The translations under genes and the position numbers were made by a program. From positions 87,048,001 through 87,112,000 of the forward strand of contig OX638151.1 of NCBI GenBank assembly GCA_951804945.1: 64,000 nucleotides of DNA. The letters run 5' to 3'. Of this stretch, positions 11,254 through 15,784 are shown in pieces. Below the pieces are notes generated by a model. That model was given only the letters and a program-made list of their open reading frames with translations, was not told where the DNA came from and did no database searches. Positions within the stretch are counted from its first letter, which is position 1. Each line of letters opens with the position of its first letter. The stretch comes from Podarcis cretensis. Lineage: Eukaryota.

Positions 11254-12275
11254 TTAAATTGGCTCCAAGCCAAAGGCCAGGTGGAACAACTCTGTCTTAC
11301 AGGCCCTGCGGAAAGAAATCAGATCCTGCAGGGCCCTGGTCTCATGAGGCAGAGCGTTCCACCAGGCCGGAGCCAGAGTTGAAAAGGCCCTGGCTCTGGT
11401 TGAAGCCAATCTAACTTCCTTAGGGCCTGGGACCACTACGGTGTTGCTATTTATGGACCTTGAGGCTCTCCGTGGGGCATACCAGGAGAGGTGGTCCCGT
11501 AGGTATGAGGGTCCTAGGCCATGAAGGGCTCTAAAGGTCAAAAGCAGCACCTTAAATCTGACCCTGTACTCCACCGGGAGCCAGTGCAGCTTGAAAAACA
11601 CTGGGTGAATATGCTGCCATGGCAGAGACCCTGTGAGGAGCCTCGCTGCAGCATTCTGTACCCGCTGGAGTTTCTGGGACAGCTTCAAGGGCAGCCCTGC
11701 GTAGAGCGAATTACAGTAGTCAAGCCTGGAGATGACCGTCGCATGGATCACCGTGGCCAGGTCGGGGCAGGAAAGGTAAGGGACCAACTGCTTGATGCGG
11801 CAAAGGTGGAAAAATGTCGCCTTGGCTGTTGCTGTAACTTGCGCCTCCATGGAAAGGGAGGCGTCAAGGATTACACCCAAACTCTTAACGGAAGGCAATG
11901 GCACTAATTGGGCCCCCGCAAGAGAAGGGAGTTGGTCCCTCATCCCATGCCATCCAGACCTAGCCATAGGACCTCTGTCTTCGAAGGATTTAGTTTCAAT
12001 CGGCTCCCACGAAACCATCCAGCCACAGCTTCCAAGCATCTGGTCAGTGTGTTCGGGGCCGAGTCAGTGTGGCCATCCATCAGCAGATAGAGCTGAGTGT
12101 CATCAGCATATTGGTGACAGCCCAGCCCAAAGCTCCGGATAATCTGGGCAAGGGGGCGCATAAAGATGTTAAAAAGCATCGGGGAGAGAATTGCACCCTG
12201 CGGCACTCCACACACCAAGGAGTGGCGCGACGGCATTTCCCTCCCTAGTGCCACCCTCTGTCCCCGACCAGAGAT
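11254..12275 (-). pseudogene. L2 ORF2 reverse transcriptase C-terminal half (one frameshift near 11945)
   Basis: ORFs 11940-12254 (YADD) and 11254-12039 overlap in different frames. Confidence 0.9.
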
Positions 12276-12279
12276 GATG

Positions 12280-12323
<44 letters not shown>

Positions 12324-14229: not shown

Positions 14230-14271
<42 letters not shown>
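14230..14271. repeat. (AT)n microsatellite
   Basis: Direct reading. Confidence 0.95.
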
Positions 14272-14275
<4 letters not shown>

Positions 14276-14479
14276 TGGAGACCATCTCAGTAATGACTGC
14301 TGCAAAGGACCAAGTGAATGGATGAAAGTCCCAGTCCGCCAAGATTGTGGTGACCAATTATAAGCACACTGTTATACATAAAAGCACAGCTACAGATAGG
14401 TAGCCGTGTTGGTCTGCCATAGTCAAAACAAAAAAATTCCTTCCAGTAGCACCTTAAAGACCAACTAAGTCAGTTCTTG

Positions 14480-14517
14480 GTATGAGCTTTCGTGTGCATG
14501 CACACTTCTTCAGATAC
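14480..14517 (-). ncRNA. Minimal type I hammerhead ribozyme motif (PLE pLTR)
   Basis: Exact mirror of 15409-15446. Confidence 0.8.
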
Positions 14518-14697
14518 ACTGAAACAGAAGTTTCCAGACCCTTCTATATAGTGAGAAGGTGGGGAGGGGTATTACTCAGAAGGGTGGTGGGAATGGGTGA
14601 TTGGCAGATAGCTGTGATGAGCCTGTTGACGACTCTTAACGACTGCAATAGGTCTTACAGGAAAAAGCAAGGGGTGAGAAGGTGAAAAATGGCTTTG

Positions 14698-15444
14698 TCA
14701 TGTATAATGAGATAAGAATCCAAGGTCTTTGTTCAGACCAGGACTCTCCATGGTTTTAAGTTTGGTGATAAGTTGCAATTCAGCAGCTTCTCTTTCCAGT
14801 CTATTTCTGAAATTCCTTTGTAGTAAAACAGCTACTTTGAGATCTTGTATAGAATGTCCTGGGAGATTGAAGTGTTCTCCTACTGGTTTCTCTGTCTTGT
14901 GATTCCTGATGTCAGATTTATGTCCGTTTATTCTTTGGCGTAAGGTCTGGCCTGTTTGTCCAATATAGAGAGCTGAAGGACACTGTTGGCATTTGATGGC
15001 ATACACAATGGCATACACAATGTTAGACGATGGCATACACAATGTACACGATGAGCAATTAAATAGTCCCGAGATGGTATGTGTGATGTTGTTGGGGCCA
15101 GTAATGGTGTTGTCCGGGTGTATGTGGCAGCAAAGTTGGCATCTGGGTTTATTGCAGGCTCTGGTGCCAGTGTCCGTGTTAGGTCTGGTTGTAGTATTAT
15201 TGTGGGTTAGGAGTTGTTTAAGATTGGGTGGCTGTCTGTAGGCAATGAAAGGCTGTCTGTAGGCAATGAAAGACCTATTGCAGTCGTTAAGAGTCGTCAA
15301 CAGGCTCATCACAGCTATCTGCCAATCACCCATTCCCACCACCCTTCTGAGTAATACCCCTCCCCACCTTCTCACTATATAGAAGGGTCTGGAAACTTCT
15401 GTTTCAGTGTATCTGAAGAAGTGTGCATGCACACGAAAGCTCAT
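14698..15444 (-). CDS. Open chimeric ORF (248 aa): antisense-pLTR-derived N-terminus fused to PLE Cys linker and GIY-YIG endonuclease. Expression unknown.
   Basis: IVYAIKCQQC...YIGQTGQTLRQRINGH...HF...H...REAAE...GLN. The catalytic Tyr, Arg, Glu and Asn positions are present and there are no stops. Confidence 0.55.
   Translation of the reverse strand: MSFRVHAHFFRYTETEVSRPFYIVRRWGGVLLRRVVGMGDWQIAVMSLLTTLNDCNRSFIAYRQPFIAYRQPPNLKQLLTHNNTTTRPNTDTGTRACNKPRCQLCCHIHPDNTITGPNNITHTISGLFNCSSCTLCMPSSNIVYAIVYAIKCQQCPSALYIGQTGQTLRQRINGHKSDIRNHKTEKPVGEHFNLPGHSIQDLKVAVLLQRNFRNRLEREAAELQLITKLKTMESPGLNKDLGFLSHYT
15322..15385 (+). promoter_or_regulatory. pLTR promoter-like module: CCAAT, CACCC-like boxes, TATA (mirror on minus at 14541-14604)
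   Basis: CCAAT at 15322-15326 and TATATAGAAG at 15376-15385, about 30 nt upstream of the hammerhead. Spacing is canonical. Confidence 0.5.
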
Positions 15445-15446
15445 AC
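15409..15446 (+). ncRNA. Minimal type I hammerhead ribozyme motif (PLE pLTR)
   Basis: Stem I GUAU/AUAC, core CUGAAGA(A), stem II GUGUG-CAUG-CACAC, GAAA, palindromic stem III AGCU. Predicted cleavage after C15442. Confidence 0.8.
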
Positions 15447-15691
15447 CAAGAACTGACTTAGTTGGTCTTTAAGGTGCTACTGGAAGGAATTTTTTTGTTT
15501 TGATAAAAGCACAGCATTAGAAATAAAGCAGTAAAAAGCAGCAGATAAAAAAACAACACAATAGAAGCCAAAAAGAGAGAACACTCAGTGGGACACAGTC
15601 ATTTTCATTGCCCATGAAGAAGGCCAAGCACACCTTTCTAGGCAAACACTTCAAAAATCTGAGCACCAGAATTGTGAGCACCGACTGTACC

Positions 15692-15760
15692 CCAGGTGAT
15701 ATGGAAGAGGGCCTCTGGAAGAGGGCCTCTTCCAGGTGATATGGAAGAGGGCCTCTGGAA
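15692..15760. repeat. 29-bp direct duplication with templated 11-bp spacer
   Basis: CCAGGTGATATGGAAGAGGGCCTCTGGAA at 15692-15720 and 15732-15760, spacer GAGGGCCTCTT. Confidence 0.85.
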
Positions 15761-15784
15761 CAGAGCTGAGTTATTGGACAAGTC

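Follow-up and report, generated by a model that had tools for sequence, protein, structure and literature searches.

A young insertion of an abundant Neptune-type Penelope-like element, truncated at its 5' end and with head-to-head pLTR arms, likely formed by two-strand priming and likely dead on arrival

In the EN+ Penelope-like elements (PLEs) described by Craig et al. in 2021, an inverted, 5'-truncated copy gives rise to flanking inverted repeats, a tail of 30 to 40 bp stands at one end, the pLTR carries a hammerhead, and at the C terminus a GIY-YIG endonuclease is reached, in Neptune and Nematis, through a CX2-5CxxC linker (PMC8557442). According to the same source, this linker between the reverse transcriptase (RT) and the endonuclease is absent from Penelope/Poseidon, and the hallmarks of EN+ PLEs include a DKG motif and a CCHH motif with two of its cysteines inside GIY-YIG. 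Pen2/Pen2a of the rotifer Adineta vaga includes incomplete copies held between inverted pLTRs and a target site duplication (TSD), with a 31-bp tail, a pLTR whose TATA and Inr can be read both ways, and an ORF start that is included in both pLTR and tail (Arkhipova et al. 2013, PMC3846280). Minimal type I hammerheads without helix III (min-HHRs) are described from metazoan PLEs in thousands per genome, and among them dual motifs on opposite strands about 100 to 700 bp apart have been reported (Cervera and de la Pena 2014, PMC4209133). For insertion itself, the purified protein of a lizard PLE of the Poseidon type was found to cleave both target strands and to extend them from two internal RNA start sites that define the tail, with hammerhead cleavage dispensable for insertion (PMC11167929). 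The layout that concerns us, an inverted 5' copy with a tail of 30 to 40 bp and hammerheads on opposite strands, is already published. Here, we describe a locus of this layout at 14378-15515 of the window, the 64,000-nucleotide stretch of Podarcis cretensis DNA that was analysed, which, with its family, shares structural features listed above with the EN+, A. vaga and min-HHR systems. We read it, with a probability of roughly 0.87, as a single insertion, young and 5'-truncated, of an abundant Neptune-type PLE; its head-to-head arms likely arose by two-strand priming, and it was likely dead on arrival.

The two arms (14424-14656 and 15270-15502) are 233 bp each and reverse-complement identical with 0 mismatches, just as the original prediction had judged them, and they enclose a spacer of 613 bp. 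Outside them lie the two copies of a TSD recognized as a sequence repeat (14378-14390 and 15503-15515), whose length is set at 13 bp because empty-site contigs from other samples contain the 13-mer once, so that its description as a clean 13-bp duplication stands. The 3' end of the element is marked by a 33-bp tail on the minus strand (14391-14423), of the kind described in PMC8557442 and PMC11167929, which includes the opening 10 codons of the family's ORF (ATG at 14420) and is found on the left side only. Both arms face outward: the left is the 3' pLTR of the longer copy in minus-strand sense, and the right is an inverted, tail-less, 5'-truncated second pLTR copy in plus-strand sense. The cassette had been called symmetric, which holds for its identical arms and fails at the tail, whose presence on the left alone makes the whole asymmetric. 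Measured from the element 3' end (distances written as d hereafter), one arm of the copy extends to about d830, the other to d265.

Within the spacer, the minus strand holds a 5'-truncated ORF end (14698-15252) with the thumb/linker end, a CX4CxxC linker motif (15156-15130), a GIY-YIG endonuclease (PF01541, E 8.8e-6 in a Pfam search; matched stretch 15012-14863) and a stop at 14700-14698, and the CCHH motif of EN+ PLEs is present as a CxxC directly before the YIG with His residues downstream. The earlier reading of this spacer as a Cys linker plus endonuclease with no RT was correct: in the intact unit, 1,390 nt separate the RT catalytic motif from the 3' end (d1390), and the window copy ends at about 830 nt, so that the endonuclease stands alone because the truncation fell between RT and linker. 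Private local duplications (15011-15053, minus strand) add 33 bp, or 11 codons in frame, between the linker and the GIY-YIG core, and the added 11 aa adjoin the first strand of the catalytic core; apart from them, the endonuclease matches that of the intact family copy. Compared with three other family copies, the window copy shows this in-frame insertion and 3 to 5 point differences in about 830 bp. The inversion junction (15230-15272), unique in the genome, consists of a 21-bp tandem duplication (15230-15271) and 3 nt of microhomology (15270-15272).

The family to which this copy belongs is abundant, with 4,760 exact matches to a 28-mer of the tail and 6,322 to the 38-nt hammerhead in the 1.5-Gb assembly. 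Its intact form was found on contig C14, where a partial tandem of 3,011-bp units carries an uninterrupted 925-aa frame with RT and GIY-YIG domains (RVT_1 at aa 453-601, GIY-YIG at aa 823-869, DKG at aa 332 and CX4CxxC at aa 785). The tandem units on this contig (L112:3478-10000 and L113; G000:C14) are identical over 3,512 bp, with the ORF start inside the tail. Other landmarks of the unit are the ORF ATG at d29, the hammerhead cut at d93, the hammerhead start at d127, the Inr-like A at d130, the TATA at d160, the stop at d310 and the YIG at d577. The single ORF of EN+ PLEs, with an RT followed at the C terminus by a GIY-YIG, is present in this intact unit, the window copy retaining the endonuclease end only, and the pLTR formed from a partial tandem, the inverted copy, the 33-bp tail and the 13-bp TSD are likewise structures of that group; the identification of the locus as Penelope-like, with hammerheads in its pLTR arms, was well founded. 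Because CX4CxxC occurs in both the intact unit and the window copy, as in the CX2-5CxxC linker of Neptune and Nematis, we provisionally class the family as Neptune-type, a placement made from the linker motif and a vertebrate-sized genome rather than from a phylogeny.

Each arm carries a minimal type I hammerhead core, as originally noted. By motif scan these lie at 14480-14517 on the minus strand (predicted cut after 14484, no helix III) and at 15409-15446 on the plus strand (predicted cut after 15442), and a minimal hammerhead in the pLTR, here scanned for against the description in PMC4209133, is a membership feature of EN+ PLEs; a search of the whole window against Rfam at the gathering score gave no hit. 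Mapped contigs and reads show loose ends at 14517 and 15409. A predicted pLTR core promoter in the left arm (14520-14550, minus strand) points leftward out of the cassette and combines a TATA (14550-14544) with an Inr-like A (14520), a call suggested by motif spacing and by a pile-up of copy 5' ends, and its predicted counterpart in the right arm (15376-15406, plus strand) points rightward and combines a palindromic TATA (15376-15382) with an Inr-like A (15406). The spacing from TATA to Inr is 30 nt in both arms and both motif pairs face outward, away from the endonuclease; in both, "promoter" denotes a motif call, with activity presumed from the letters. Given the head-to-head layout, each transcript direction has one sense hammerhead.

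RNA reading through the copy had been expected to form a 233-bp double-stranded stem, and minimum free energy (MFE) folds agree, pairing 233/233 arm positions for the plus strand and 232/233 for the minus strand. The accompanying suggestion, that self-cleavage would compete with hairpin formation, fares poorly. The motif is without helix III, one such motif on its own is described as giving no cleavage in vitro (PMC4209133), the hammerhead of the Anolis element PAc needed protein (PMC11167929), and the local hammerhead fold is worth -6.8 kcal/mol versus -73.8 kcal/mol for the arm duplex over the same bases. Real competition between the two is unlikely.

The insertion occurs once in the genome and is young. 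A 28-mer across the junction has 1 match in 1.5 Gb, as does a 30-mer across the internal duplication, and a junction unique to the locus was half of what the original prediction had linked, together with a lack of transcription and small RNA, to an ordinary dead-on-arrival copy. The TSD, for which genotyping was also proposed there, is represented by an empty site in other samples: in X1, one 339-nt contig runs across 14272-14390 and 15503-15720, the two segments overlapping by 13 nt, and holds the 13-mer once, and in X4, one 1,476-nt contig likewise covers both flanks with a 13-nt overlap (contigs matched between two analyses by length and depth), and right-flank contigs of X2 and X5 are consistent with an empty site. 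Over 706 bp of flank no difference separates X1 from the window, so that the X1 organism is likely of the same or a very close species, and the empty sites of X1 and X4 mark the insertion as young and unfixed. The filled allele rests on the assembly and was not seen among the contigs listed for the four DNA runs, as would be so if repeat sequence had been misplaced at the locus by an assembly artefact; we give that account hardly any credence, because the true empty-site sequence is duplicated exactly over 13 bp, the tail offset is typical of the family and the internal duplications are private, all of which is unlike misassembly.

Other features of the neighbourhood were recorded as well. A 40-bp tandem duplication in the right flank (15692-15766) is absent from the X4 and X5 contigs, those of X1 and X2 break there, and it is a second local polymorphism. 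To the left lies a (TA)n microsatellite (14231-14271), and microsatellite targeting was rejected as an explanation for the insertion site because the run ends 106 bp left of the TSD. Further left, two long minus-strand frames (11254-12323) stand beside a (TAA)n run; the 269-aa frame has no Pfam hit at E 0.001, and we take the two to resemble the C-terminal RT region of a truncated LINE.

Inverted copies are common in this family. Of the first 83 tail matches listed for contig C1, 80 made up our survey sample (the three left out lay inside another sampled stretch). The sample represents one chromosome end, the first 17 Mb (L032-L111, G000:C1), and was chosen by exact tail matches. Only 14 inverted pairs, some of them unrelated, came out of a self-BLAST of these loci, which misses short-spacer palindromes; it was replaced by mapping all copies to one natural full-length unit, which misses some long-spacer cases (e.g., L067). 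By this mapping, an inverted piece is present in 56 of the 80 position-ordered copies and none in 22, with 2 unmapped. Among the 56 inverted copies, a TSD of at least 10 bp flanks 43 (12 to 13 bp in 30 of the 43), and the inverted arm starts 27 to 44 nt inside the 3' end (d27-44) in 51; both arms extend beyond the TATA in 8 of the 80. The first 100 exact hammerhead matches include 16 pairs within 3.5 kb, 16/16 of them divergent as in the window copy. Extrapolated family-wide from this one chromosome end and its exact tails, inverted units would number roughly 3,000. Endonuclease cassettes that lack the RT core and have inverted arms and TSDs were also found among the 29 closest other loci (L002, L007, L009 and L027), with different junctions.

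The arms in this sample tend to end at a particular place. Of 134 arm 5' ends, 45 fall within 11 nt at d123-133 and 76 at d100-135, and hammerhead cleavage was rejected as the source of 5' truncation, given that 4 of the 134 ends lie at d90-100, where the hammerhead cut is, versus the 45 at 123 to 133 nt. With this pile-up near the predicted transcription start, most family copies are hairpins of ~200 bp, likely made by run-off copying of the mRNA's first 130 nt. We did not find the pile-up of copy ends at a predicted start stated in the literature that we searched, and Fig. S2 of PMC11167929 may show it. Most insertions at L032-L111 are ~200-bp MITE-like hairpins with individual junctions, and four are complex, with three to six pieces within one TSD (L057, L084, L094 and L087); L084 includes ORF-start sequence, and the inversion in L087 is of upstream sequence, not the 3' end.

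From the structure of the window copy and the behavior of a Poseidon-clade protein, we propose two-strand priming as its origin. The element protein would nick the target strands 13 nt apart, and one nick would prime cDNA at the tail-end start site (d0) that runs through about 830 nt of unit sequence before stalling with local re-copying, from which the 33-bp and 21-bp duplications may stem. The other nick would prime about 33 nt further inside (d33) and run 233 nt, after which the two cDNA ends would be joined head-to-head via the 3 nt of microhomology and fill-in would produce the TSD. Both arms extend beyond the predicted start (130 nt from the 3' end), which makes pLTRs located downstream of an ORF, as in a tandem read-through RNA, their likely templates. 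Within insertions the arms tend to agree at subfamily sites: at site d88, 6 pairs are variant/variant, 37 reference/reference and 0 mixed; at d142/143, 6 and 2 are concordant with 0 mixed; three other sites have one mixed pair each, and d80 has two. Such agreement is consistent with one source per insertion event, and might also arise if subfamilies had been active in different periods. An alternative origin, proposed for this kind of structure, is that an antisense template primed itself (self-priming; PMC3846280), and the present data do not separate it from two-strand priming. The window copy is of use as a clean, recent footprint of PLE insertion.

Could the copy nevertheless do something at its locus? 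A host or cryptic transcript that crosses it might feed the 233-bp stem to Dicer or ADAR, with an effect traceable to the locus, such as the silencing trigger that the original prediction had considered. The near-complete pairing in the MFE folds favors this, small RNAs of PLEs have been described from a rotifer (PMC3846280), and sequence of the family is common in the RNA of another organism, where 84% and 77% of mapped reads continue into unlike sequence, which indicates that family copies sit inside host transcripts. We consider it improbable all the same, because 56 of 80 sampled family copies are hairpins too, so that one non-fixed locus adds little, and because the stem spans the pLTR only, not the ORF. 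In addition, the left flank (102 bp) drew 0 reads from two RNA runs, about 12% and 6% of which were read (another organism, hence a weak guide), and editing-type changes (A>G/T>C) show no excess relative to C>T/G>A in the differences listed (20 versus 24 in X23 and 20 versus 18 in X21, at the level of the family). RNA of X23 and X21, again a weak guide as it comes from another organism with a diverged family, showed no start pile-up at the hammerhead cut or the predicted start. As for a host gene around the copy, 0 of 115 exon-like frames, picked from 577 of at least 45 aa, hit Pfam at E 0.001, with which a long intron is still compatible. We conclude that the window copy is likely inert.

Two further possibilities concern the copy as a gene or as a mobile unit. 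If the palindromic right-arm TATA fired inward, the first AUG, at 15333, would open a 211-aa protein of linker and GIY-YIG, that is, an accidental endonuclease-only gene. A 256-aa minus-strand frame (14698-15468; AUGs at 15444, 15333 and 15309) is indeed open from the inverted arm into an endonuclease that matches the intact copy but for its insertion, the AUG at 15333 sits a short way downstream of the TATA's reverse face and has G at -3 and +4, and bidirectional pLTR promoter motifs are noted in PMC3846280. Yet the predicted RNA would pair its opening ~82 nt, among them the AUG, with the left arm, the in-frame fusion with this arm peptide is found in 1 of 13 loci checked (the window locus), as chance joining allows, and the 11-aa insertion lies beside the first strand of the catalytic core, all of which leaves such a gene very improbable. 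The original prediction had also entertained an amplifying non-autonomous unit, a MITE-like master, to which the layout with cis-acting pLTRs and the mobility in trans of pLTR-bounded sequences in a rotifer (PMC3846280) would lend themselves. This idea is refuted and is the least probable of those weighed here: many copies with the same internal junction would be expected of such a unit, whereas junction and internal duplication are single-copy, sister cassettes carry other junctions and the site is empty in other samples. Moreover, both predicted promoters face outward, and the RNA would be without the ORF sequence beyond the tail that the Poseidon protein needed in vitro (PMC11167929; an analogy across clades). 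The window locus is likely an ordinary dead-on-arrival PLE insertion, of an already known kind, whose copy did not spread, and as a routine insertion product it matters little in itself.

What the family does as a whole may be another matter. We raise the idea, unlikely as we hold it to be, that through its insertion chemistry the family makes a silencer of itself: priming on two strands at internal sites, with run-off at the mRNA 5' end, would have seeded some 3,000 hammerhead hairpins (an extrapolated figure), many of them read through in host RNAs, which might jointly supply double-stranded RNA that restrains the active source. Should the many hairpins jointly supply RNA silencing, the products of its own insertions would hold an active retrotransposon in check; the window copy would then be one of the longer and youngest hairpins, still segregating, and carriers versus non-carriers would form a natural test. 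A literature search at the level of listings returned nothing on point for hairpins or siRNA from inverted PLE copies, for short inverted squamate copies, or for Chompy.

The 5' inversions of L1 that arise by twin-priming share with the window copy two target-strand primers, an inversion, junction microhomology and a TSD, but there the inverted part is upstream sequence, whereas in the window copy both arms repeat the 3' end. From the EN+ PLEs of Craig et al. 2021, as described in PMC8557442, the window copy shows no structural difference, and the present analysis contributes an inversion frequency, 56/80, measured in one vertebrate family. Pen2/Pen2a of A. vaga is described as having few copies, TSDs of 8 to 10 bp and palindromes at the inverted junction (PMC3846280), in contrast to the window family with its thousands of copies and TSDs mostly of 12 to 13 bp, and to the window junction with its microhomology and local duplication. 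Compared with the dual motifs of min-HHRs (PMC4209133), those of the window copy are about 890 bp apart and have the endonuclease between them. Animal non-LTR retrozymes (bioRxiv 10.64898/2026.07.22.740005) are likewise non-autonomous, hammerhead-bearing PLE derivatives, but are described as head-to-tail tandem units, an arrangement of hammerheads for dimeric cleavage, whereas the window copy is head-to-head, single-copy and carries an ORF fragment. The A. carolinensis Poseidon element PAc (Frangieh et al. 2024, PMC11167929) belongs to the Penelope/Poseidon clade without the linker motif, and its ORF starts in the hammerhead, unlike that of the window family, which starts about 100 nt downstream of it, in the tail. 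PAc is nonetheless alike in that the tail is set by two internal RT start sites and both strands are extended. The family data fit this in vitro two-strand, two-start-site extension, and they further place the ends of most copies close to where transcription is predicted to begin instead of at the hammerhead cut.
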